Origin: Patescibacteria group bacterium | GTDB lineage: Bacteria; Patescibacteriota; Patescibacteriia; UBA9570 | Assembly: GCA_041665365.1 (NCBI GenBank) | Contig: JBAYIY010000007.1 | Coordinates: forward strand, 11,103 to 75,102 | DNA length: 64,000 nucleotides | Reading direction: 5' to 3' | The notes under the pieces: model-generated | What the model was told of the DNA's origin: nothing | The model's database searches: none | What the model saw: only the letters and a program-made list of their open reading frames with translations | Shown here: positions 4,603-47,301 of the stretch, in pieces | Numbering within the stretch: position 1 is the stretch's first letter | Layout: every line of letters starts with the position of its first letter | Translations under genes and position numbers: made by a program

Positions 4603-4713
4603 AAAATCACGCAGCAAGAATTTTCTGTAATTCCGTATCGAGCCGATCCAAACAGAGAATTAAATACGTATTAATTACCTAGCTACTATTCGAGATGTAC
4701 TGCTATGCAGGGG
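4603..4713. repeat. copy 2 of the direct repeat, abutting the 3' end of tRNA-Trp
   Basis: Aligned by eye to 3148-3266. Its last bases (tgcaggg) overlap the tRNA acceptor 3' strand. Confidence 0.85.
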
Positions 4714-4778
4714 GTGCAGGAATCGAACCCGCCCTAATGGTTTTGGAGACCACTGTACTACCGATATACGAACCCCCT
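4708..4778 (-). tRNA. trnW: tRNA-Trp (anticodon CCA)
   Basis: The reverse complement folds as a cloverleaf. Acceptor AGGGGGT/ACCCCCT, anticodon stem GTGGT/ACCAT, loop CTCCAAA, T-arm GCGGG-TTCGATT-CCTGC. CCA is not encoded. Confidence 0.85.
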
Positions 4779-7817: not shown

Positions 7818-7951
7818 GAAACACCTCCCCAACCCTCCTATCGTAGGAGGGAGTTAAGAAATTATCTTAATATTTATCCTACCCTTCCTACAATAGGAAG
7901 GGTGCCCGAGTCATCGAGGGCGGGATGGTGTTTTCCTGATTGGAGGTGTTC
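7818..7951. repeat. nested G/C-tract palindromic element (family 1), probable bidirectional terminator
   Basis: Fills the convergent gap 7817-7952. Outer arms gaaacacctcc/ggaggtgttc. Inner hairpins ccctcctatcgtaggaggg and cccttcctacaataggaaggg flank an AT-rich core. Confidence 0.8.
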
Positions 7952-33197: not shown

Positions 33198-33208
33198 ATT
33201 TACCCCCA

Positions 33209-33303
33209 CGTATAGACATGCAATCATGTAGAGACGTGCCATCATGTAGAGACGTGCCATCATGTAGAGACGTGCCGGCGGCACGTCTCTACATGATGGC
33301 ACG
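33209..33303. repeat. family-2 palindromic repeat cluster (GTAGAGACGTGCC type)
   Basis: About 3.5 tandem 18-bp units catgtagagacgtgccat run into a 21-bp-arm palindrome, gccatcatgtagagacgtgcc-ggc-ggcacgtctctacatgatggc. Confidence 0.85.
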
Positions 33304-34501: not shown

Positions 34502-34591
34502 TTTACCCCCAACCCCCTTGCAGGGGGCTAAGAAAAGATTTTTCTAAATTTTCTTTCTTATCCCCCTGCAAGGGGGACAGAGGGGGTAAAA
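34502..34591. repeat. family-1 nested palindromic element (canonical copy)
   Basis: tttaccccc-aa-cccccttgcaggggg-ctaagaaaag...ctttcttat-ccccctgcaaggggg-acaga-gggggtaaa. Confidence 0.85.
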
Positions 34592-34603
34592 TCCGAGATG
34601 TTC

Positions 34604-38960: not shown

Positions 38961-39035
38961 TTTACCCCCAACCCCCTTGCAGGGGGCTAAGAAAAAATGT
39001 TTTTAAAAAACTTCTTTGGGGGACTAAGGGGGTAC
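38961..39035. repeat. family-1 palindromic element (degenerate right half)
   Basis: tttaccccc-aa-cccccttgcaggggg-ctaagaaaaa...cttctt-tgggggactaa-gggggtac. Confidence 0.8.
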
Positions 39036-39087: not shown

Positions 39088-39951
39088 ATGAATTATCTTC
39101 GCATTGTCTTTGCCCATTGGATTGCCATATTGTTCATCACCACTGCGGCCGCGGCGCTTACGGTCGGGTTATCTTTTATTCCTACCCAGATGTATTCATC
39201 GGAGGTGTCTTTATTGATTGTGCAGAAACAAGCGCAGTATGTTGACCCTTACACATCACAGAAAGCTGCCGAAAAGTTGGGGCAAAATTTAGTGAATGTG
39301 ATCGACTCATTTGATTTTTTAAACCGCGTTTTGGCCACCGGCACAGTCTCACCCGATTTATTTAGTGCTTCCACTGATGCCCGTAAAAAACAATGGGAAG
39401 CCATGACTGATGCGGAAATGTTTAGTAACACTGGTGTGTTGCATATCACCGCTTATGCCCCCACCGCCGGTGCCGCTGAAGATGTGGTGATGGCCATGAG
39501 TACAGTGCTCACTACTAATTCATCAGATTATCATGGTGGGGGAGATACCGTTGAGATTAAGCTCATCGATGGGCCGGTCACATCGGATAGTCCGGTAAAA
39601 CCAAACATTCCATTAAATGGTGCGATTGCGGCTGTGTTAGGCCTAATCGCCTCGGCGGCTGTATTTATTGTTTATGAAGAAACCAAACGGTTACAAGATG
39701 AACAAGCCAAGGTGAGGTATGTGCAAACCGTCACGCCTGGTAGAGACGTGCCGCCGGCACGTCTCTACGATGATCGGATTGAAAAATCTGATCAAATCAT
39801 AGAGCCCCAATATAAGGTATTAGATGAATACCCCAAACAGCCATATGTGTATGGTGCGGAATTGAAGGATGAAGAACCTCGCCAAGGGGCGGGTGAACCT
39901 CGCCAAGGGGCGGGTGAACCGGTGTCGATGCAGGATCATTTGAAAAAATAG
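39088..39951 (+). CDS. Wzz-like polysaccharide chain-length determinant with repeat-derived C-terminal tail
   Basis: TM1 at the N-terminus followed by Y.SEV.LLI, and TM2 (GAIAAVLGLIASAAVFIV) near residue 190. The tail contains a family-2 palindrome and a 21-bp tandem. Confidence 0.55.
   Translation: MNYLRIVFAHWIAILFITTAAAALTVGLSFIPTQMYSSEVSLLIVQKQAQYVDPYTSQKAAEKLGQNLVNVIDSFDFLNRVLATGTVSPDLFSASTDARKKQWEAMTDAEMFSNTGVLHITAYAPTAGAAEDVVMAMSTVLTTNSSDYHGGGDTVEIKLIDGPVTSDSPVKPNIPLNGAIAAVLGLIASAAVFIVYEETKRLQDEQAKVRYVQTVTPGRDVPPARLYDDRIEKSDQIIEPQYKVLDEYPKQPYVYGAELKDEEPRQGAGEPRQGAGEPVSMQDHLKK
39740..39768. repeat. family-2 palindrome inside the coding sequence
   Basis: gtagagacgtgcc-gcc-ggcacgtctctac, translated as GRDVPPARLY. 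Confidence 0.85.
39874..39920. repeat. 21-bp tandem repeat (2.2 copies)
   Basis: gaacctcgccaaggggcgggt x2 plus gaacc, translated as EPRQGAG EPRQGAG EP. Confidence 0.9.
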
Positions 39952-40011: not shown

Positions 40012-40040
40012 TTGACAAAAAGTAGAAATAATGCTAAATT
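40012..40040 (+). promoter_or_regulatory. sigma70-like promoter opening the high-GC cassette array
   Basis: TTGACA (40012), 17 nt spacer, TAAATT (40035). Confidence 0.5.
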
Positions 40041-40064
40041 GTTCAGTTATTTTTGGGGACATAT

Positions 40065-40213
40065 GTACCCCCTAGCCCCCTTGCAGGGGGTAAAAGATAA
40101 CAATAAACTTATGCACCTTTTCACTATGAACAGTTAGTACGAACGGGGATACCATGAGTGTACCCCCAACCCTCATCTCTTATCCCCTTGAAAGGGGGAC
40201 AGAGGGGGTAAAT
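40065..40213. repeat. family-1 palindromic element, split/expanded copy
   Basis: gtaccccc-tag-cccccttgcaggggg ... about 70 nt insert ... gtaccccc-aac...ccccttgaaaggggg-acaga-gggggtaaa. Confidence 0.75.
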
Positions 40214-40760
40214 TCCGGAGTGGGTAAACACCAGTTAGTCTCACACGAATCAGATGAGAACACCATCAAAGTGAAGGTGTTGCCATGTGGTTCGTCTGTA
40301 TAGCCGGTGATCAGCAATGATCGCTGGCTGTCATGAATCACTCAACCCGAAAGGGTTAAGCACATTTACAATCTACTTTCCTACTTCGACTCGTTTCACT
40401 CGCTCAGTATAAATTTATTGAGCATGTAAGCTTGTCGAATGATCATCGGTAGCGATATACAGACCTCATCAATATACATACTTCTTTGAGTACACCACCC
40501 TAGCCCTCCTATTCTAGGAGGGAATAAGAATAAATTTTCTTACTCCCTTCCTACAATAGGAAGGGCCGGGGATGGTGTATTCCGGAGAGGGATACGTATC
40601 CGGAGAGGTCTCCATATCGCTACCGATGAAACCAACAATATCGGAGCTCGGTTCCCCAACGGGGAGACATTCGTCGCGGCAATTTCGCCGTGATGTATGT
40701 CCACCCGGACGTGAACCGGGACCGATCGACTTCACTCGACTACATGGAGCTACGAAAACA
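40204..40760 (+). promoter_or_regulatory. conserved structured 5' leader, copy A
   Basis: A 91-nt block (40204-40294) is identical to 42545-42635. Block 40443-40625 is near-identical to 42712-42917. Long-range stem cggtagcgatatacagacctc / gaggtctccatatcgctaccg. Confidence 0.6.
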
Positions 40761-42236
40761 ATGACGTTCAAGAACATCCTCGCGATCTTCACGTTCATCT
40801 TCGCCATTCTCGCCCCGGCGACCGTCGCCCAGGCCCAGGAGAAGTGGGAGGATCCAAAAGTGGGTCCGTTCACTCTCGGGTACTGGTCGAAGCTCGATGC
40901 CGGCGCGACCAGTGTCGACGCCGCGGCGGCCGGGATCATGAAGAACTTCAAGGAGTGTGAGAGCAAGTACGGCCAGGGTGGGTGCTACATCCAGTTCGAA
41001 TCATCTACTGACATCAACCGCTGGGACAACACCAAGAATGGCAAGGACGACGCATTGCACGGTGGGCTCGGAGAGGGACGCACCGCGGTCCTCAAGGACG
41101 CGGTGTTTTCTCGATCCGCAAGGATCAAGGAATACTCGGTCACCGACTACCCCCACCACGGTGCGAAAGATGGATGGCGGTACTCCTGGGCGACGATCAT
41201 GCCCAAGGAAGGTGCCTCCGCGATGCCGAAGGTGTCGGCCGACCCCAACAAGAGGTGGAGCTTCCTCACGGAAGTGCTCCTCCGCCAGACCGATAACCTC
41301 TGTCCCACGATGGTGCGGGCGGACGCGGTCACGCGAACCTACACCCTGCAGGGTCAAACCTGCGGGTGCAGCACGTTCGATGCAGTGCCCAGCACCCGCC
41401 AGTTGGAGGTCAGGAACGACCTCACCTGGTTGGGAAAGGTCGTCGCGGACCGCTCGAAGTGGTCCGACGCGAAGACTTTGACCTGGACGGAAGTCCGGGC
41501 CGCTCTCGAGGAGGGCACCGAGTCCCGCGTCATCGAAGTCGACGCGCTCGGCGATCCGTCCTCCACGCCCGACGGTCTGTCCGTTGAGTTCGTGGAGTCG
41601 GAGACCCTGCTCCGGGTGCAGTTCCCGGACAGGTGCTCGCCGATCCTCGACGCCGCGAAGGCAGAGGCCGACGCCAAGGCGCAAGCCAAGGCTCAGGCCG
41701 ACGCCGACGCCCGCGAGTCCGCAAGGCTCGCGGCGTACAACACCGACTTCATGGTCGGTGGGTCGGTCGCGGGTACGGGGACGTTCATCCCCAAGTACAG
41801 CCCCTTCAACCCGGGCAGGGGTTTCGACCTCGCCGGGCACGTCGAGGGCGGTGCGGTGATCGGCGGCGGGTACGGCGCGTGGGCTTTCGGGCTCGGCGTC
41901 GGCCCGTCGTGGGACCCGAACTGCCTGACCCCCGGCCAGGTTGACCTCGAGGCCTTCACCGGCCCGTGGCTCAACAGGCAGGGGAAGGTCGGGTTCTCCG
42001 CCTTCCTGAACGGATCTGCGGGCTTCACCATGTACAACGGTGAAGTCCTCACCCCGCGGTACCGCCTGGGTCTCAACCTGGGCGTGCCCGTGCAGGTGGA
42101 GCGTGAGCTCTACCTGGTTCCCCAGATCGGCCCCGTGGTCGACTGGGTGAGCGGGCAGGTGCAGGCGACCGGCGGCTTCGCGATCACCGAGCGAGTCGGG
42201 ATCGCGGGTGGTCTGCGGATCATCAAGACGTTCTGA
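40761..42236 (+). CDS. high-GC exported protein with C-terminal beta-barrel-like domain (foreign-type)
   Basis: ORF track gives 40572..42236. The true start is likely the ATG at 40761, after GGAG, because it begins the signal peptide MTFKNILAIFTFIFAILAPATVAQA. Strong GC3 bias. Gly/aromatic-rich last ~170 aa, ending in Phe. Confidence 0.7.
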   Translation: MTFKNILAIFTFIFAILAPATVAQAQEKWEDPKVGPFTLGYWSKLDAGATSVDAAAAGIMKNFKECESKYGQGGCYIQFESSTDINRWDNTKNGKDDALHGGLGEGRTAVLKDAVFSRSARIKEYSVTDYPHHGAKDGWRYSWATIMPKEGASAMPKVSADPNKRWSFLTEVLLRQTDNLCPTMVRADAVTRTYTLQGQTCGCSTFDAVPSTRQLEVRNDLTWLGKVVADRSKWSDAKTLTWTEVRAALEEGTESRVIEVDALGDPSSTPDGLSVEFVESETLLRVQFPDRCSPILDAAKAEADAKAQAKAQADADARESARLAAYNTDFMVGGSVAGTGTFIPKYSPFNPGRGFDLAGHVEGGAVIGGGYGAWAFGLGVGPSWDPNCLTPGQVDLEAFTGPWLNRQGKVGFSAFLNGSAGFTMYNGEVLTPRYRLGLNLGVPVQVERELYLVPQIGPVVDWVSGQVQATGGFAITERVGIAGGLRIIKTF

Positions 42237-42429
42237 TCTGAGTAGGAAAGTAGGTTAGGGTGAGGGGGTATAGGTTGTGTCGCAAGTCTGCGAACAATCT
42301 GTACCTCCTCCCCACCTACACAAATATGAATAAGGGATAATGTCTCTCGAGGTAGTGACCTCGGTAAACATGGTTCCTGATTCAACTGAATAAGGAATCG
42401 GTCTTTAAAAATAATCTATGGTTAAAACC

Positions 42430-42553
42430 TTTACCCCCTCTGTCCCCCTCTCGCCTCTGCGAAGCCGCTACGGCGGAGCACGGTGCAGGGGGATAAGAAA
42501 AGAAGTTTTAAAAATATCTTCTCATAGCCCCCTGCAAGGGGGTTGGGGGTAAA
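42430..42553. repeat. family-1 palindromic element (inverted orientation) with a GC-rich insert in one hairpin loop
   Basis: tttaccccc-tctgt-ccccct[38-nt insert]caggggg-ataagaaaag...-ccccctgcaaggggg-tt-gggggtaaa. Confidence 0.8.
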
Positions 42554-43053
42554 TTCCGGAGTGGGTAAACACCAGTTAGTCTCACACGAATCAGATGAGA
42601 ACACCATCAAAGTGAAGGTGTTGCCATGTGGTTCGAAGAGTCATAGTCGATCAGCAATGATCGCTTGTGACCACGAAACACAATTTGTTCTTTAAAATCT
42701 TCTGCTAAGAATCATCGGTAGCGATATACAGACCTCATCAAGCATACACACTTCTTTGAGTACACCACCCTAGCCCCCCGCCTTGCCGGCGTGGCAGGTC
42801 CTATTCTAGGAGGGAATAAGAATAAATTTTCTTACTCCCTTCCTACAATAGGAAGGGCCGGGGATGGTGTATTCCGGAGAGGGATACGTATCCGGAGAGG
42901 TCTCCATATCGCTACCGGTGAAAACAATACCGGCGTGCTCGGTTCCCAGAATGGGAAAGATGCGGTTGTGGGAATGTTCCCATGACATGTGTTCTACCCT
43001 GTTCAAAAGAACCGGGACCGATCGACTACACAATTTCGACTGGAGCTACGACA
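42545..43053 (+). promoter_or_regulatory. conserved structured 5' leader, copy B
   Basis: See copy A. Same block order, with the middle segment shortened and a 22-nt GC-rich insert at about 42786. Confidence 0.6.
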
Positions 43054-43839
43054 ATGACGCTCAAAAACATCGTGATCTCGCTCGCGCTCGTCGTCGGTTG
43101 CAAGATGGGCCCGGTGCAGGAATGTGACTCGGACTCGGACTGCTTCGAAACCAACACCAACTCCGATACCGACACCGACGCGGACACGGACACGGACGCC
43201 GACGCTGATACGGACACGGACTCCGACACCGATACCACCGAAACCGACGTGGACAACGACGGCGACGGGTACACCGTGGACGGCGGGGACTGCAACGACG
43301 CCAACGCCAGCGTCCACCCGGGCGCGACCGAGTACTGCAACGGCGTCGACGACGACTGCAACGGGTCGATCGACGACAATGACACCGACGGGGACGGGTA
43401 CGTCTCCGACGACTGCACGTCATATGACGGAGTCGCCGGCCTCCCCGGTGGTGATTGCGCGGATTCGATCGGGACGACGGCGTCCTGGTCGAACAGCGAT
43501 ATCCACCCGGGGCAGTTGGAAATGTACGACTGGATCGACACTAACTGCGACGGCACCGCCGACGATGGATGTAGTATGTTGTGCGACACCGACGGCGACG
43601 GATACGAGAATTTCGAACAGGGCAGCGGGCCCGAGTTCGAGTGCGTGGACGCGTCGTTCGTGGCGGATCAGTCCGCCTCGAGCAGCCCGTTCGATACGAC
43701 GATCTCGTGGACGTATGCCTCCAGCGGAGTGGTTTACTCCGGTGTGAACGCAACGTGCGAAATGACGGCGGCCCAGCAGGTCGATCCGTCAACCTGGAGG
43801 ACGATCACGTCCATCCAGGCCGAGATGGCCACCCGCTAA
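43054..43839 (+). CDS. high-GC lipoprotein with (D-T)n tract and MopE-type Cys-rich motifs (foreign-type)
   Basis: Start at the ATG at 43054 after GGAG. Lipobox LALVVGC. DTDTDADTDTDADADTDTDSDTDT tract. DGDGYTVDGGDCNDANASVHPGATEYCNGVDDDCNGSIDD. Confidence 0.7.
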   Translation: MTLKNIVISLALVVGCKMGPVQECDSDSDCFETNTNSDTDTDADTDTDADADTDTDSDTDTTETDVDNDGDGYTVDGGDCNDANASVHPGATEYCNGVDDDCNGSIDDNDTDGDGYVSDDCTSYDGVAGLPGGDCADSIGTTASWSNSDIHPGQLEMYDWIDTNCDGTADDGCSMLCDTDGDGYENFEQGSGPEFECVDASFVADQSASSSPFDTTISWTYASSGVVYSGVNATCEMTAAQQVDPSTWRTITSIQAEMATR

Positions 43840-44107
43840 AGGTGGTTATCTCAACCGGAGATTGGTAGTTCTCCGGGCACAGACATAAGTGCAAACAAAA
43901 AACCAAAATCTTCTAGCAGAAGATAGATCAGCTCGGGAGGTGGCATGAGTAGAGCACACAAACGCTCCTCGCCACCTCCCACCTTCGCTCTAAGAAGAGC
44001 TTCGGCGGGCAAGCCCACCTAATAATGTATCCAGAATCAAATAGTATTATGGATAGATTAATGGGAAATAGTAATTAACAAATAGGAGTTAGGAAATAAA
44101 TAGGGGG

Positions 44108-44134
44108 TTGACGTGACCTTTTTTTTGATATAAT
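44108..44134 (+). promoter_or_regulatory. promoter with extended -10, leaderless layout
   Basis: TTGACG, 15 nt spacer containing TGa, TATAAT (44129), then 8 nt to the ATG at 44143. Confidence 0.45.
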
Positions 44135-44142
44135 ATCGATTT

Positions 44143-44391
44143 ATGACTACGGCTAAATTAGTAAAAACAGTAAATTCATGTCCAAAGACAAGTTTGAATG
44201 ACAAACCGGTTGTTATGATACCCATGGAACTATGGGAAACGCTTCAGGTACAATTACTAACAAGACCAGTCCCGACTTATTATTTGCAAGGAAAAGAGGC
44301 AAAACAATTAGATCATCTTGTTCAACAAGGTATAAACGCAGCTCGATCGAGAAAAACTAGAGTAATAACTTCACTTGCAGAGTTAGATTAG
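44143..44391 (+). CDS. putative type II antitoxin (Phd/YefM- or RelB-like)
   Basis: 82 aa. KPVVMIPMELWETLQ resembles the antitoxin N-domain. A toxin-like remnant follows 4 nt downstream. Confidence 0.4.
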   Translation: MTTAKLVKTVNSCPKTSLNDKPVVMIPMELWETLQVQLLTRPVPTYYLQGKEAKQLDHLVQQGINAARSRKTRVITSLAELD

Positions 44392-44394
44392 CCC

Positions 44395-44460
44395 ATGAAC
44401 ATACAGGTCACAGATCGTTTCGTTAAGCAATATAAAAAATTTATCGATGAGGTTAGATGA
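44395..44460 (+). pseudogene. truncated RelE/ParE-like toxin remnant (21 codons)
   Basis: MNIQVTDRFVKQYKKFIDEVR-stop resembles the N-terminus of RelE/ParE toxins (..I.ft.rF.K.lKKl). Confidence 0.35.
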
Positions 44461-44506
44461 TGATTATGGAAAAATAAAAATACGAAGTCACACTGAAAAA
44501 GATATT

Positions 44507-44532
44507 AAAATGTGCTACCAGCACATTTTTTT
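44507..44532. terminator. hairpin terminator, possibly bidirectional
   Basis: aaaatgtgc-tacca-gcacatttt followed by a T-run. Lies between the TA remnant and the 3' end of the ligase gene. Confidence 0.6.
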
Positions 44533-44562
44533 GTATTCAGCGTTATCAGTTCTTTCAGCGCC

Positions 44563-45966
44563 TCAGCGATCCATTTGGCCGTGTGGCCTTGTCTCCACAA
44601 CAATCATGGCTAGCACTGTCATATATGTCCACATCACGGCGGTACCTTGGAGTAGATTATCACTGACACTAATTGTTAGCGCGGCAATAATTAAGGCCAT
44701 ACCAAACAGAGCATAGTGTTTTTGCCAGCTGTCTTCATGGTGGCTAACATAATTCCAGAATAGTGTTACTAACAAACCTAGCCAGAAACCAAGATACAGA
44801 GCCAAACCAACGAAGCCGGTTTCAATGGCTAAACGGAGATAATCATTATGGGCTTCAGGGTCATCAAACAAACCGATATCGCCCTGTTGTCTTAAAGTCA
44901 CAAAGTTGCCTAAACCGTAACCGAGAAGGGGAGAATTGAGGGTTTGCGGTGCCATAGTTTGAAACACCTGTAAGCGCCAATCAATCGAATCGGCTTCCTC
45001 ATCACGACTGGTTAGGCGATGTAAGAGGTTTATTTTATTTAGATCATAATTAAAAGTATTGATGGTAACAGTGTTGATTACTTGCCACAACAAAAATGCA
45101 CCGACTAAGACAGTAGCAATAGTGAGTAATTGTTTACGATAATATTTTAGGCCAATTAATATTTGAATGACGACAAAACCAATCCAGGCACCTCGAGTAT
45201 AGGTGAATAATAACATCACCAACCCCAAGCCGATTAGCCATGGATATATTAAAGACCGTTGTTCAGGTTTTTTAGTCAGTTGGGTGATTAATAATAAATT
45301 TATGATACATACCAAATAAAACCCAAACACATTCGGGTGACCAAAGGTGCCATAGACGCGGTTATCTAAACCACCAAATGATAGCCCGGTGGCGGTAATA
45401 AGCTGCACCAAGCCAGCGGCTAATGGTATCACCAGAGCCACGGCTAGTACCGGTGTTAGCCGCGTGATACTGTGTGGTTGTGTGGTAGCCACGTGGTAGG
45501 CAATTATAAAAATAATCACAATCGAACTGAGGCGGAGCCATTCACTCAATGAGATAAATGTATCCAAGCTGACACCCAAGGTGGCGGCTCCCCAGATTAA
45601 AACTCCAATCAGCCAGCCCAATTGGGTAGTGGCACTAAGTTCAACCCGTTCTCTAAGTAGAATTACTAAGAACCACACAATCACCAATATTGCCACCATG
45701 GAAGTTAAATTTATAGTGACTGATCGAATGGTTAAAAGGCCATAGCCAGAAAATATATCAATGATCGGGCGAAAGATGAGTAGGGCATATAAACCATACT
45801 CGGTTTTTAATAAAAAAATTGGGGCGATAATTACAATGGCCGCTAAGCCAATGGCGGATGTAGCAGAAATATCTCCAAATACTATCCAGCCTAATACACT
45901 TAACACTGTTAGGCTGTATATAATTAAAAGTATGGTGTTGAATTTTGAAAGTGGGGAGAAAGACAT
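44563..45966 (-). CDS. O-antigen ligase-like (Wzy_C/RfaL family) membrane protein
   Basis: 467 aa, about 11 TM. YTRGAWIGF and EAHNDYLRLAIETGFVG motifs. Confidence 0.75.
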   Translation of the reverse strand: MSFSPLSKFNTILLIIYSLTVLSVLGWIVFGDISATSAIGLAAIVIIAPIFLLKTEYGLYALLIFRPIIDIFSGYGLLTIRSVTINLTSMVAILVIVWFLVILLRERVELSATTQLGWLIGVLIWGAATLGVSLDTFISLSEWLRLSSIVIIFIIAYHVATTQPHSITRLTPVLAVALVIPLAAGLVQLITATGLSFGGLDNRVYGTFGHPNVFGFYLVCIINLLLITQLTKKPEQRSLIYPWLIGLGLVMLLFTYTRGAWIGFVVIQILIGLKYYRKQLLTIATVLVGAFLLWQVINTVTINTFNYDLNKINLLHRLTSRDEEADSIDWRLQVFQTMAPQTLNSPLLGYGLGNFVTLRQQGDIGLFDDPEAHNDYLRLAIETGFVGLALYLGFWLGLLVTLFWNYVSHHEDSWQKHYALFGMALIIAALTISVSDNLLQGTAVMWTYMTVLAMIVVETRPHGQMDR

Positions 45967-45987
45967 TGAGATTATTATAACACATCA

Positions 45988-46025
45988 ATCCAGTAGAGAC
46001 ATGCCATGGCATGTCTCTACTGGAT
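45988..46025. repeat. perfect 38-bp palindrome (family 2 variant)
   Basis: atccagtagagacatgcca|tggcatgtctctactggat. Confidence 0.9.
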
Positions 46026-46029
46026 TGAT

Positions 46030-46103: not shown

Positions 46104-47159
46104 TTACTTGACGGCGACCGTAGGGTTCGCCACCACGAGGATACTCCCCATGATGGTCTCCACGTCGCCGGCGTAATTCCCGCCGGCATTGTGGAGGTCG
46201 ATCCCCTCGGCCTTCACCACCTCTTCCCGGACGCCGTCAGCGACCGGGAAAGCCACCTCGCCCTCGCCGTACGAATCGTCGACGACGAAGAAGAAATGAT
46301 CCCGGGCGACTTCACAAAGTCGTTTGCCCGGGAGAGTGGTCAGACTCGAACACTTGAACCCCTCCGGCAGCACGAGGATGCTGCCCATCGTGAGTTCCGG
46401 AATCGTTCCGGTGTACTCACTCAGGGCGTAGCTATCCCCGGAGCCGGCGAGGGGCCCGGTGAAGCAATCGTAGCCCGACGAGGCGCCATCGCCGCAAGAG
46501 AGGTGGGTATGATCCACCTCAATGGGCAACGGCCGCCCGATCGGGCCAGTCTGAGTCAATTCTCCCACACGCACCGCCTGGGTCGCGGTCGTGTGGGAGC
46601 CACCGTGAGCCCCAACCCAGCGGGTGGAGTCATATCCCTTCTCACACGCGCTGAACGGCGCGGAGTCGGGGAGGACCCACCCGGACGAGCCGTCGAAGTA
46701 GCTGATTTCAACAACGGTACCGTCAGGCTGCAGGGCCGTGACGATCCCATTGTTGTACAGATCATCCGACGTGTCCCTCATGGCGAAGGAATCGGGGAGG
46801 TAAACCTCCCTCGTTCTCCTGCCATCGGGGGCTGTCACGGTCACCGGTGACGAGTCTTTCGACCCGTCGAGGACAAAAACCGGGTCGATGTCGACCCAGT
46901 CAAGTCCTCCGTCCCAGTCCGTCTCGACCGTCCGGGCGATCTTGCGATCAACCTGGAGGTCACGGATCTGGAACGGCACCGAGGCCCAGCACTCGGCCGG
47001 GGTCTCGGTGTCGGTGTCCGCGTCAGTGTCAGAGTCGGTGTCCGTCTCCGCTTCGGGGCAGGTCGCCCCGGGCAGAGACGGATCACAATTGAGCTCTCCA
47101 CACCCCGCCACCAAAATGGTGACCAGGACGAGGAGCAGCTCGATGATGTAGCGCAACAT
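46104..47159 (-). CDS. high-GC lipoprotein with (D-T/S)n tract (foreign-type)
   Basis: 351 aa. Lipobox LVAGC. ETDTDSDTDADTDTE tract. Strong GC3 bias. AAGGAG lies 6 nt before the ATG. Confidence 0.7.
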   Translation of the reverse strand: MLRYIIELLLVLVTILVAGCGELNCDPSLPGATCPEAETDTDSDTDADTDTETPAECWASVPFQIRDLQVDRKIARTVETDWDGGLDWVDIDPVFVLDGSKDSSPVTVTAPDGRRTREVYLPDSFAMRDTSDDLYNNGIVTALQPDGTVVEISYFDGSSGWVLPDSAPFSACEKGYDSTRWVGAHGGSHTTATQAVRVGELTQTGPIGRPLPIEVDHTHLSCGDGASSGYDCFTGPLAGSGDSYALSEYTGTIPELTMGSILVLPEGFKCSSLTTLPGKRLCEVARDHFFFVVDDSYGEGEVAFPVADGVREEVVKAEGIDLHNAGGNYAGDVETIMGSILVVANPTVAVK

Positions 47160-47272
47160 GACTGCTCCTTACCCCTGGTCGGGGTGGGGGGACTGTTTGT
47201 TCGTCAAGTAATATGAATTTGGAAAGAACTAGTGTCGCTTACAGACAAAATTTGCCCATAAACGAACCGCAC

Positions 47273-47301
47273 AATATACCCTATTTTTGACGTTTTGTCA
47301 A
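47273..47301 (-). promoter_or_regulatory. near-consensus sigma70 promoter driving the third high-GC gene
   Basis: Minus strand: TTGACA, 17 nt spacer, TATATT, then a leader of about 110 nt. Confidence 0.55.

Follow-up and report, generated by a model that had tools for sequence, protein, structure and literature searches.

Predicted structured leaders with a boxA-like motif before three GC-rich exported-protein genes in a Patescibacteria glycan locus

Polysaccharide operons are antiterminated by NusG paralogues, as in the RfaH/ops-JUMPStart, UpxY and LoaP systems. The mRNAs of S-layer and other major surface proteins carry long structured 5' leaders that give them a long half-life, and in rrn operons an RNase III stem lies downstream of boxA. 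Processive antitermination by boxA and Nus factors acts in the leader and spacer of rRNA operons, at suhB and in the leaders of CRISPR arrays (PMC5725501, PMC7665894), and RfaH and ops have been described as well (PMC2871177). In the vls antigenic-variation system of Lyme-disease Borrelia, surface-lipoprotein DNA lies about 20 GC points above an AT-rich genome across species despite divergence (PMC11499132). We compared these systems with a glycan locus in a 64,000-nt stretch of DNA from an uncultured Patescibacteria bacterium (the window), where three GC-rich exported-protein genes (ORFs A, B and C) were found.

As judged from sequence comparison, the part repeated in units A and B forms a 5' leader that is both conserved and highly structured, and the same design precedes ORF C. 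It runs from a promoter through a 5' hairpin, a boxA-like motif, a long stem and a 3' domain to the Shine-Dalgarno site (Table 1). As in boxA/Nus systems, a GYTCTTT..AA motif preceded by a hairpin lies in the promoter-proximal transcript ahead of a long untranslated RNA, the long stem follows the motif as the RNase III stem does in rrn transcripts, and the motif recurs before the second gene like boxA in the 16S-23S spacer. However, the motif here precedes exported-protein genes of a glycan locus, its binding of NusB/NusE is putative, and nothing in rrn operons corresponds to the 3' domain of the leader. The likeness to RfaH/ops is a leader element before surface or polysaccharide-locus genes with atypical codon usage, and the stem base CGGTAGCG coincides with ops GGCGGTAGnnTG in eight bases. 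These bases, however, vary here with compensating partners, and pairing is therefore what is constrained, not the ops sequence. RfaH is moreover proteobacterial, and we saw no paralogue of NusG encoded in the window. Like A, B and C, S-layer genes encode exported envelope proteins behind a long 5' leader with a very stable structure, but they are not known to show the GC3 anomaly of A, B and C. With vls, the locus shares surface-protein coding DNA that stays GC-enriched despite sequence divergence, segmental, mosaic variation and a conserved 5' end; in contrast, A, B and C show no G-run bias, have a GC skew of ~0 and no silent cassette array within the 64-kb window, vary between lineages and not within a clone, and belong to three protein families. 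Integron cassettes are likewise repeated head-to-tail units with one ORF each, but no intI was among the scanned window ORFs, and no attC-like 3' site was found at units A and B. The repeat here is instead a transcribed leader on the 5' side that brings its own regulatory signals, and all lineages have a fixed gene content.

The pairing of the long stem was examined at its base in 13 leaders. Ninety-six percent of cells were paired, compared with 17-48% in slid controls; the arms had been chosen as complementary, which inflates the paired percentage but not the compensatory changes, and 10 of 13 pairs had changed on both sides. The 3' helix showed one UA/AU swap. Fold z-scores of leaders A and B were -15.8 and -10.5, respectively, with boxA unpaired, and the long stem had an equal position in all three gene classes. 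The boxA-like label denotes a resemblance: the core GYTCTTT with its A-rich tail fits the published GYTCTTTAANA, a consensus from other phyla. A sequence model of the motif (R1) was searched against 194 kb, and all 16 matches at E <= 0.02 were leaders of GC-rich genes, including two that were independent and held out; the match that came next had E 0.37. Model R1 missed the other six of the eight independent held-out leaders.

Table 1. Features of units A and B and of ORF C (positions in the window)
Feature	Position	Strand	Remarks
Sigma-70-type promoter of unit A, TTGACA-17-TAAATT	40012..40040	+	scores 10/12, TG extension
Variable 5' part of leader A: dispersed REP-like palindromes and start of 91-nt repeat	40041..40286	+	
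Hairpin closed by GTGGTTC / GAATCAC, in boxB-like position before boxA	40287..40341	+	sequence, MFE fold
Degenerate boxA-like motif and tail ACATTTACAATCTACTTTCCTAC	40362..40384	+	unpaired in MFE fold
Long stem of leader A: arms 40443-40467 / 40605-40629, apical palindromic inserts	40443..40629	+	
GC-richer 3' domain of leader A: CGGTTCC...GAACCGGGACCG helix around variable hairpin, then GGAG 40746-40749	40630..40760	+	
ORF A: 491-aa secreted protein, type I signal peptide, GC 0.65, GC3 0.86	40761..42236	+	
B-type hairpin GGTTCCTGATTC...GGAATC, then GGTCTTTAAAAAT	42372..42412	+	
A-type leader copy within unit B: 91-nt exact repeat, hairpin, boxA GTTCTTTAAAAT at 42687-42698	42545..42698	+	
Long stem of leader B: arms 42712-42736 / 42897-42921	42712..42921	+	
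3' domain of leader B, GGAG at 43042-43045	42922..43053	+	
ORF B: 261-aa lipoprotein-like, LVVGC lipobox, D/T-rich linker, two MopE-type Cys/Asp motifs, GC3 0.85	43054..43839	+	
ORF C: 351-aa lipoprotein (LVAGC), D/T-rich linker, conserved domain with GAHGGSHxTATQA motif, GC3 0.79	46104..47159	-	
ORF C promoter and short leader	47160..47301	-	TTGACA-17-TATATT (47301-47273), scores 11/12

The promoter-like site originally predicted for unit A was confirmed in the sequence. L005, L006 and L007 conserve this segment where their A leaders start, and its counterpart in L012 is TTGACA-17-TATTCT. The variable 5' part differs in sequence in L012, and REP-like palindromes of its kind are scattered through the genome. 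The GTGGTTC / GAATCAC closing helix also occurs in L005_A, L007_A and L012_A. The boxA-like motif of unit A itself is degenerate (ACATTTACAAT) and aligns with GTTCTTTACAATCTACTTTCCTAC of L007_A and L012_A. The 25-nt arms of the long stem of leader A are 92% complementary. Orthologues of ORF A were found in L006, L007, L011, L012, L014 and L015, with a fragment in L005.

Unit B repeats leader A in several blocks: 40204-40294 is identical to 42545-42635 (91 nt), 40507-40635 and 42799-42927 share 98% identity over 129 nt, and 40442-40778 and 42711-43071 are ~80% identical. The last block spans the GGAG sites and the first six codons, as the original prediction had described, and ORFs A and B are otherwise unrelated (BLASTP E 0.11), again in agreement with it. 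We take the segment 42372-42412 to be the boxA module that leader B had ancestrally, and its counterpart in L006_B and L011_B is atatGGTTCCT...GTTCTTTG(A/T)AAA. Unit B retains its own B-type hairpin and boxA and has in addition received an A-type leader copy with stretches of 100% identity to leader A. Recombination between leaders, one of the mechanisms first proposed, is therefore visible in the genome. The boxA at 42687-42698 matches GYTCTTTAANA perfectly (a consensus from other phyla, PMC5725501), and model R1 matches 42685-42714. ORF B matched PF11617 (E 4.7e-17) and has orthologues in L005, L006, L007, L011 and L015.

ORF C, which the original prediction did not include, is preceded by a separate promoter and by a leader built like those of A and B. 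This leader has a 5' hairpin beginning GGTTCG and a boxA-like GTTCTTTCCAAA at 47229-47218 (model match E 0.0017); the promoter lies ~45 nt 5' of this motif, indicating that the motif would be transcribed. ORF C lies between GT4 and Wzy in ten other lineages. Its close family comprised 14 clusters among 5.8 billion proteins, in the same glycan locus in all cases with readable context.

The 45 other ORFs of the window have GC3 of 0.26-0.47, far below ORFs A and B. The earlier G+C counts of 41/60 (41521-41580) and 19/60 (44401-44460) were exact. A switch of composition inside the leader had also been described; there is indeed a modest enrichment 3' of the long stem (~0.53), but the main jump is within the coding sequences of ORFs A and B. 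These two ORFs had been taken for foreign cargo. Orthologues of A, B and C were found by tblastn or protein search in ten other Patescibacteria lineages (L005-L007, L010-L012 and L014-L017), syntenic between Wzz, Wzy and the GT4 gene, with the A-B block inverted between lineages. GC3 of the orthologues was mostly 0.78-0.93 (0.51-0.62 in L006), against 0.27-0.50 in neighbouring genes. The GC-rich codon usage is conserved in other lineages and therefore does not itself indicate recent import. GC1 and GC2 were raised too, and four-fold sites held 2-6% A. The GC3 bias sets in with the first codons and stays even up to the stop, in the conserved centre of A as elsewhere, which points to selection on mRNA or codons as its most likely cause.

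The coding parts differed strongly between L007 and L012, whose flanking genes were close: GT4 and Wzy showed 98% and 96% protein identity (dS 0.19 and 0.29), respectively. ORF C had 52-54% identity (pS 0.55), and in ORF A a block with pS 0-0.14 lay between blocks with pS 0.5-0.7. Nucleotide identity returned within 8 nt of the ORF C stop and persisted through Wzy and all of leader A into the first ~80 nt of ORF A. Identities of ORF C were uncoupled from those of the flanking genes. Leaders and signal-peptide codons are thus conserved, and mature coding parts are replaced or mosaic in close relatives. Because these parts are hypervariable while the flanks are 96-98% identical, alleles do turn over in a cassette-like manner behind the conserved leaders.

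The sharp compositional contrast is the only feature to suggest that the assembly is chimeric or contaminated with a high-GC organism from the same co-assembly. Every GC junction, however, was identical in three assemblies (MEGAHIT, JGI and Logan), and homologous GC-rich genes lie at the same place in the ten other lineages; an artefact is thus excluded in practice. The JGI contig L001 corresponds to 40549-45007 of the window and the Logan contigs L002 and L004 to 40596-42554 and 42888-46013, and the ENA contig L003 spans 33036-53839 without a mismatch, its single 18-nt indel lying elsewhere. A, B and C were identical in the window and all these contigs, and therefore there is no sign of ongoing switching in this population. 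It is very improbable that the inverted repeats are DNA-level elements, namely an invertible promoter switch or MITE insertions. Both units have 25-nt inverted repeats around 137-160 nt, and the dispersed palindromes and the inverted A-B block would fit such elements, but the arms differ among leaders with compensatory changes where recombinase sites would keep their sequence, the three assemblies show a single orientation, no promoter-like site was seen in the loop on the gene's strand, and the stem position is constant across the gene classes. A modular site that captures and expresses foreign exported-protein genes was the original proposal; the route could be an integron-like, IS200/IS605-like hairpin or other cassette mechanism. 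Repeated leaders before unrelated ORFs, atypical composition, plentiful hairpins and palindromes, and coding parts swapped between lineages speak for it. The cassette-like evolution of the coding parts holds, but foreign capture is very improbable: in ten other lineages these slots are filled by the same three families, the repeats lie 5' of the genes as regulatory RNA with compensatory changes and are not 3' attC-like sites, and homologue searches found no high-GC donor. In addition, a Pfam scan that covered 39 of the ~48 window ORFs with at least 150 aa found no integrase or other recombinase, transposase or reverse transcriptase, and none had been noted at first. The two-unit array is better read as one regulatory leader reused before each gene.

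It is unlikely that a hot spot of recombination raised the GC content through GC-biased gene conversion, in parallel with the Borrelia vls cassettes (49% GC vs 28.6% for the chromosome, PMC11499132). Mosaic recombination is evident and the leaders are homogenised within the genome, but heteroduplex repair should enrich homologous arms and the leaders and flanks stay low-GC; GC3 is equally high in conserved and variable blocks, and the near-zero skew and lack of a silent array in 64 kb are unlike vls. Repeated import, in which alleles of unsampled high-GC relatives or hosts replace residents and bring their GC with them, is unlikely too, but the least so of these alternatives. Codon usage at the three positions, including the elevated GC1 and GC2, and amino-acid make-up resemble a 65-70% GC organism, the alleles are deeply diverged, the ORF C phylogeny is decoupled from its flanks, and host GC varies by lineage, with the L014 flanks at ~0.5. 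ORF B also carries MopE-type motifs, which are common in high-GC Myxococcota. On the other hand, all close homologues with readable context are in a low-GC Patescibacteria locus, GC3 is also high in the signal-peptide codons and the centre of A that are conserved with the flanks (L007 and L012), and flanks with 45-78% protein identity in most lineage pairs are too diverged for easy homologous replacement.

On balance, A, B and C seem to be native, co-regulated genes for exported or lipid-anchored proteins of a Patescibacteria-clade envelope glycan locus, standing behind boxA-type structured leaders, with coding parts that turn over. We consider them native and specially regulated, not captured, because the GC-rich codons are kept, variation is fast and each has the same leader. 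Each gene would be expressed behind a long 5' leader that folds strongly and follows a common design, and this leader may load a Nus-type, termination-resistant elongation complex, like an rRNA operon with boxA in both leader and spacer. The long stem may be a processing or stabilising element. RNA polymerase could thereby pass through ~0.7 kb of untranslated RNA and go on into ORFs with host-atypical codon usage. A and B are probably a single transcript from the 40012 promoter, with unit B re-supplying boxA. A gene-specific force, most likely the mRNA or codon selection considered above, would hold the coding parts at GC3 ~0.8-0.9, while alleles are replaced and segments recombine behind the conserved leaders and signal-peptide codons. 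Our literature searches found no earlier report of this phenomenon, and GC-rich exported genes with structured leaders appear to be new to the literature. The turnover pattern fits that of arms-race proteins at the cell surface.

We examined the two head-to-tail units (A and B) of the glycan locus, each consisting of a long leader RNA region followed by a GC-rich ORF for an exported protein. As originally predicted, a promoter-like site, TTGACA-17-TAAATT, was present at 40012-40040 directly past the Wzz-like gene. The two units shared an exact 91-nt block (40204-40294 and 42545-42635), a 129-nt block with 98% identity, and a similarity of about 80% between 40442-40778 and 42711-43071 that took in both GGAG sites and codons one to six. 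The G+C counts made by hand in that prediction (41/60 and 19/60) were exact, ORF A and ORF B were unrelated (BLASTP E 0.11), and a Pfam scan of 39 window ORFs revealed no integrase, transposase or reverse transcriptase. Apart from these units, the gene content of the window was unremarkable, with housekeeping and glycan genes, and the genome is classed by NCBI as a Patescibacteria MAG.

Three separate assemblies gave this sequence, and therefore each GC junction was independently spanned. A JGI contig was identical to window 40549-45007, and two Logan contigs were identical to 40596-42554 and 42888-46013, being interrupted only at the leader repeats, as expected of a de Bruijn assembler. An 85-kb ENA contig (L003) spanned 33036-53839 with 0 mismatches and one 18-nt indel far from the GC-rich region, which corresponded to one unit of a tandem repeat, CATCATGTAGAGACGTGC, at 33205-33260. 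For practical purposes, the three matching assemblies thus ruled out the assembly chimera that the original prediction had wished to exclude.

Coordinates of features of the A/B/C locus in the window and in relatives (L numbers), and parts of the leader
Feature	Sequence	Position	Strand	Description
Wzz-like gene	window	39088-39951		PF02706
ORF A	window	40761-42236	+	GC3 0.86
ORF B	window	43054-43839	+	GC3 0.85
ORF C	window	46104-47159	-	GC3 0.79; third GC-rich exported-protein gene, absent from the original prediction
ORF C promoter	window	47301-47273	-	near-consensus; 5' hairpin and boxA-like motif also within 46104-47301
A-B block	window	40012-43839
A-B block	L005	12417-16084
A-B block	L007	12778-16911
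A-B block	L012	5190-7432
ORF A-type C-terminus	window	42150-42236
ORF A-type C-terminus	L005	14400-14477
ORF A-type C-terminus	L007	15100-15169
ops-like stem base	window	40446-40454; 42715-42723
ops-like stem base	L007	around 15393
Toxin-antitoxin-type insertion	L010	11369-12727
Toxin-antitoxin-type insertion	L016	9397-9932
Leader part (a)				sigma-70 promoter
Leader part (b)				hairpin; in the C class begins at the predicted transcript start
Leader part (c)				motif G(T/C)TCTTT-N2-(A/C)A(A/T) with TCT..CTT tail
Leader part (d)				long perfect stem, 13-18 bp, TCGG-anchored; loop ~20-150 nt with REP-like palindromes
Leader part (e)				A and B only: GC-richer 3' domain, closing helix of CGGNUCC / GGGNCCG type
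Leader part (f)				Shine-Dalgarno site

Homologues of ORF C fell into 13 clusters with 43-60% identity. In all cases with a readable contig (L005, L006, L007/L008, L010, L011, L012, L014, L015, L016 and L017), the homologue was flanked by the same two genes, for a GT4 glycosyltransferase and a Wzy-like protein. Orthologues of ORF A and ORF B, detected by tblastn with 28-59% identity, adjoined Wzy in the loci of relatives. Single-sequence and then profile searches of a 5.8-billion-protein database with ORF A returned only ORF A itself; the orthologues had been called on the wrong strand, and low-complexity words crowded the candidate list. For example, the true A and B orthologues in L005, L006 and L011 are on the strand opposite to the public gene calls L005 14831-16138(-), L006 13403-14611(+), and L011 6402-7877(+) and 8019-9803(+). 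ORF A seems to be an orphan in protein databases because gene callers choose wrong-strand ORFs in GC-rich DNA. A genome-contig scan with the ORF C profile returned one locus, which was previously known, and two scans of metagenome contigs, one with the 20-mer TTTACAATCTACTTTCCTAC and one with that profile, gave no match, the collection evidently being without these contigs.

Relative to Wzy and Wzz, the A-B block together with its promoter had one orientation in the window, L006, L011 and L015 and was inverted in L005, L007, L012 and L014. Small genes of toxin-antitoxin type (HicAB, CopG, DUF433/DUF5615, YafQ/ParE) were found at differing points of the locus in relatives, and an 82-aa gene of no known family occupied the corresponding place in the window (44143-44391). 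The record containing L005/L009 (CAYLOJ010000001.1, GCA_964385285.1) is titled 'uncultured Gammaproteobacteria bacterium', yet its locus is that of the Patescibacteria window, with GT4, GHL15, ORF C, Wzy and the GC-rich genes A and B; the label is probably wrong.

ORFs A, B and C had GC3 values of 0.79-0.86, as opposed to 0.26-0.47 in the 45 other window ORFs. Their orthologues in relatives formed GC islands of 0.58-0.70 in backgrounds of 0.33-0.50, with GC3 of 0.78-0.93 versus 0.27-0.50 in the background; L006 was milder (0.51-0.62). At the four-fold sites of the GC-rich genes, A was reduced to 2-6% and T to 4-15%. The bias began at the first codons and stayed level up to the stop codon. A GC3 of about 0.8-0.9 in genomes at 0.27-0.5 persists over divergence that saturates synonymous sites. 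Since orthologues share the GC-rich composition, it belongs to these genes as a conserved trait and does not mark them as newly arrived. Another segment of GC 0.58 was observed at a contig end (L017 1-500; genome 0.33-0.38) and might represent one more gene like A, B and C.

Comparison of two close relatives, L007 and L012, showed how the coding parts change. GT4 and Wzy were 98% and 96% identical at the protein level, with dS of 0.19 and 0.29, respectively, whereas ORF C was only 52-54% identical with a pS of 0.55, near saturation for two-letter third positions. ORF A was a mosaic, in which codons 200-360 were 88-100% identical (pS 0-0.14) and the parts on either side were 17-56% identical (pS 0.5-0.7). 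Nucleotide identity was 91-96% across the flanking genes, leaders and signal-peptide codons, dropped in the mature coding part, and returned no more than 8 nt from the stop codon. Furthermore, ORF C identities were out of step with those of the flanks; between the window and L006, ORF C was 59% identical but Wzy 45%. This pattern is the signature of swapped and recombined old alleles rather than of steady divergence. The A, B and C locus of the window strain was the same in all three assemblies, and rapid within-population switching was not seen.

The original prediction regarded the units as a modular capture site for foreign exported-protein genes. Its observations were confirmed and extended, and its idea of cassette-like units was borne out for the turnover of the coding parts; the capture of foreign genes by mobile machinery was not, because the same A, B and C families hold the same slots in 10 other lineages and no such machinery appeared among the scanned window ORFs. 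The content is therefore not variable in the way expected of gene-cassette capture, and the tyrosine-recombinase integrase of an integron was absent among the 39 Pfam-scanned window ORFs. The IS200/IS605-type hairpin element that had also been proposed found no counterpart: no TnpA (Y1) or TnpB gene turned up among the scanned ORFs of the window, and the hairpins occurred only 5' of each ORF and covaried like RNA helices. A recently transferred island would account for the atypical composition, but every relative that we examined had the locus in syntenic position; the window has a single tRNA, at 4707-4778. No further GC-rich or homologous segments that could serve as vls-like silent cassettes were found within the 64 kb. 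A diversity-generating retroelement was rejected, as no reverse transcriptase was found among the scanned ORFs, a repeat search gave no pair resembling a template and a variable repeat, and the allele differences included indels and all base types as opposed to the adenine-specific changes expected. An inverton was rejected as well, given the single orientation in three assemblies and the compensated variation of the long-stem arms.

What raised the GC content of these genes is a separate question. Recent transfer was excluded by the synteny and conserved GC3 in relatives, and strand-asymmetric mutation was excluded by the enrichment of both C and G with a skew of ~0. Translational selection for high expression is unlikely, since the GC3 of ribosomal protein L10 is only 0.47. 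Biased gene conversion would agree with the observed recombination, but the homologous arms, which should then have gained GC, remain AT-rich, and conserved blocks should not be left as GC-rich as variable ones; we consider this explanation unlikely. If an unsampled high-GC pool were the source of repeated imports, the codon and amino-acid make-up would be explained, although no high-GC donor was found. We tentatively give most weight to CDS-wide selection on mRNA or codons, because the GC excess is sharply limited to the CDS. Such selection might make the mRNA more stable, protect it from AU-directed RNases or toxin endoribonucleases, or tune translation and its kinetics. The nearest precedent for a GC excess conserved in a variable surface-protein locus is Borrelia vls, with 49% GC versus 28.6% and a GC skew of 0.52 (PMC11499132). 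However, vls has silent cassettes and a strong skew, whereas in the A/B/C locus GC is raised with a skew of ~0.

One leader design with six parts preceded A, B and C in every lineage. The stems of hairpin (b) covaried (GGTTCG/CGAAC, GGTTGC/GCAAC, GGTTCC/GGAAC and GGTTATTTT/AAAATAAT). In 13 distinct leaders, the long stem was 96% paired and 10/13 pairs had changed on both sides, compared with 17-48% pairing and at most 4 such pairs in slid registers used as a control. Folding of the two window leaders gave z scores of -15.8 and -10.5 relative to shuffles, with motif (c) single-stranded. Rfam searches with the leaders at gathering and permissive thresholds gave only chance microRNA-like hairpin hits and no matching family. 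The base of the long stem, CGGTAGCG(T), agrees over eight to nine bases with GGCGGTAGnnTG, the ops element of RfaH; this match is probably coincidental, because the ops-like bases vary with compensating partners in other leaders.

Motif (c) resembles boxA, whose published consensus in gamma-proteobacteria is GYTCTTTAANA (PMC5725501). At window 42687, GTTCTTTAAAA matched this consensus, which comes from another phylum, perfectly. Other leaders were one or two positions off (GTTCTTTACAA, GTTCTTTGAAA, GCTCTTTGACA and GTTCTTTCCAA), and the copy in unit A was degenerate. In the C class of the window, L006, L007, L010, L012 and L017, a TTGACA-17-TATATT promoter preceded the motif by ~45-80 nt, and the A and B motifs have the promoter at 40012 upstream. 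The motif thus lies within the predicted transcribed leader, and a promoter role for it was rejected given its position downstream of a near-consensus promoter in the C class. Both strands of 194 kb were searched with model R1, a sequence-only motif model derived from 12 copies. Leaders of GC-rich genes accounted for each of the 16 hits at E <= 0.02 (two of the 16 were independent held-out leaders), and the next hit had an E of 0.37. The bare heptamer GYTCTTT occurred 20 times in the window. No rRNA gene was found in the window or in the loci of relatives.

The leader and spacer of rRNA operons have the order hairpin, boxA and long stem. The A/B leaders share this order, which is repeated ahead of the second gene. 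BoxA elements are also known to be active ahead of long untranslated RNAs of other kinds, CRISPR arrays among them (PMC7665894). From these two points, we infer that the leader serves in antitermination and in processing or stabilization. It would take RNA polymerase across ~0.7 kb of untranslated RNA and then into ORFs that are probably poorly translated by the cell.

Unit B had a B-type hairpin and boxA at 42372-42412, matching the B leaders of L006 and L011, and 3' of this module 42545-43071 was a copy of the A-type leader with stretches 100% identical to unit A. In relatives, the stretch common to the A and B leaders was much shorter, at 75 nt for L007 and 97 nt (74% identity) for L005. 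The near-identity of the window leaders into the first six codons hence reflects recent gene conversion from leader to leader in the window lineage, and the A-type copy inside unit B bears out recombination between leaders as originally proposed. A REP-like palindrome, CCCTTCCTACAATAGGAAGGG, occurred three times (7882-7902, 40545-40565 and 42837-42857; 0 expected by chance), two copies being at the apex of long leader stems. Related small palindromes were present at 34502-34595 and 38961-39017. Palindromes of the type GTAGAGAC(G/A)TGCC, related to the CATCATGTAGAGACGTGC repeat, lay inside the 3' part of the Wzz ORF (39740-39768), and a perfect 46-nt palindrome of this kind lay between Wzy and ORF C (45984-46029). 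The C-terminal part of the Wzz-like gene also contained an exact 21-nt tandem duplication (39874-39915) that encodes EPRQGAG twice.

The ORF A product has a type I signal peptide, a conserved center that contains Cys, and a C-terminal part rich in Gly; in those of ORFs B and C, a lipobox precedes a D/T/S-rich linker. ORF B contains two MopE-type Cys/Asp motifs (PF11617), while Pfam and NCBIfam assigned no family to ORF A or ORF C. The conserved domain of ORF C is widespread (922 representatives at E <= 0.001), and other proteins carry it in fusions with lectin, PA14, beta-helix and FG-GAP modules. In several orthologues of ORF A, the C-terminus is a Gly-rich, beta-strand-like segment with a terminal Phe (..LRIIKTF, ..MGIWAF, ..TGLEF). 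It resembles the signal found at the C-terminus of outer-membrane beta-barrels, an unexpected feature in a bacterium presumed to have a single membrane. Being exported, linked to a glycan locus and fast-evolving, the three proteins would suit a function at the cell surface or in contact with a host.

Literature searches turned up no account of this system; they covered Patescibacteria or Candidate Phyla Radiation genes that are GC-rich or hypervariable, boxA in polysaccharide loci, and gene conversion in connection with antigenic variation. The known kinds under which it is best filed are the BoxA-type structured leader and the hypervariable surface-gene locus; the conserved, gene-specific GC3 island is an odd feature that is apparently unreported. 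In standard theory, atypical composition indicates recent transfer and decays to that of the host. Contrary to this, a 40-point GC3 excess is bound to specific orthologues and kept across at least 11 lineages, and therefore a gene-specific force must maintain it. Composition-based screens would misflag A, B and C as contamination or horizontal transfer. Moreover, since callers trained on the low-GC genome choose wrong-strand ORFs in these genes, these families are largely absent from protein databases. It is possible, though we hold this tentatively and with well under even confidence, that the clade actively keeps three exported-protein genes at GC3 ~0.8-0.9 by mRNA-level selection, with an undescribed class of boxA leaders enabling their expression, as a dedicated system for fast-evolving host-interaction proteins. 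To our knowledge, transcription control in the phylum Patescibacteria is essentially unstudied. The leader is a candidate new cis-regulatory RNA that would extend BoxA-type antitermination to protein-coding surface genes, and A, B and C are good candidates for fast-evolving surface or host-contact proteins of episymbiotic Patescibacteria.
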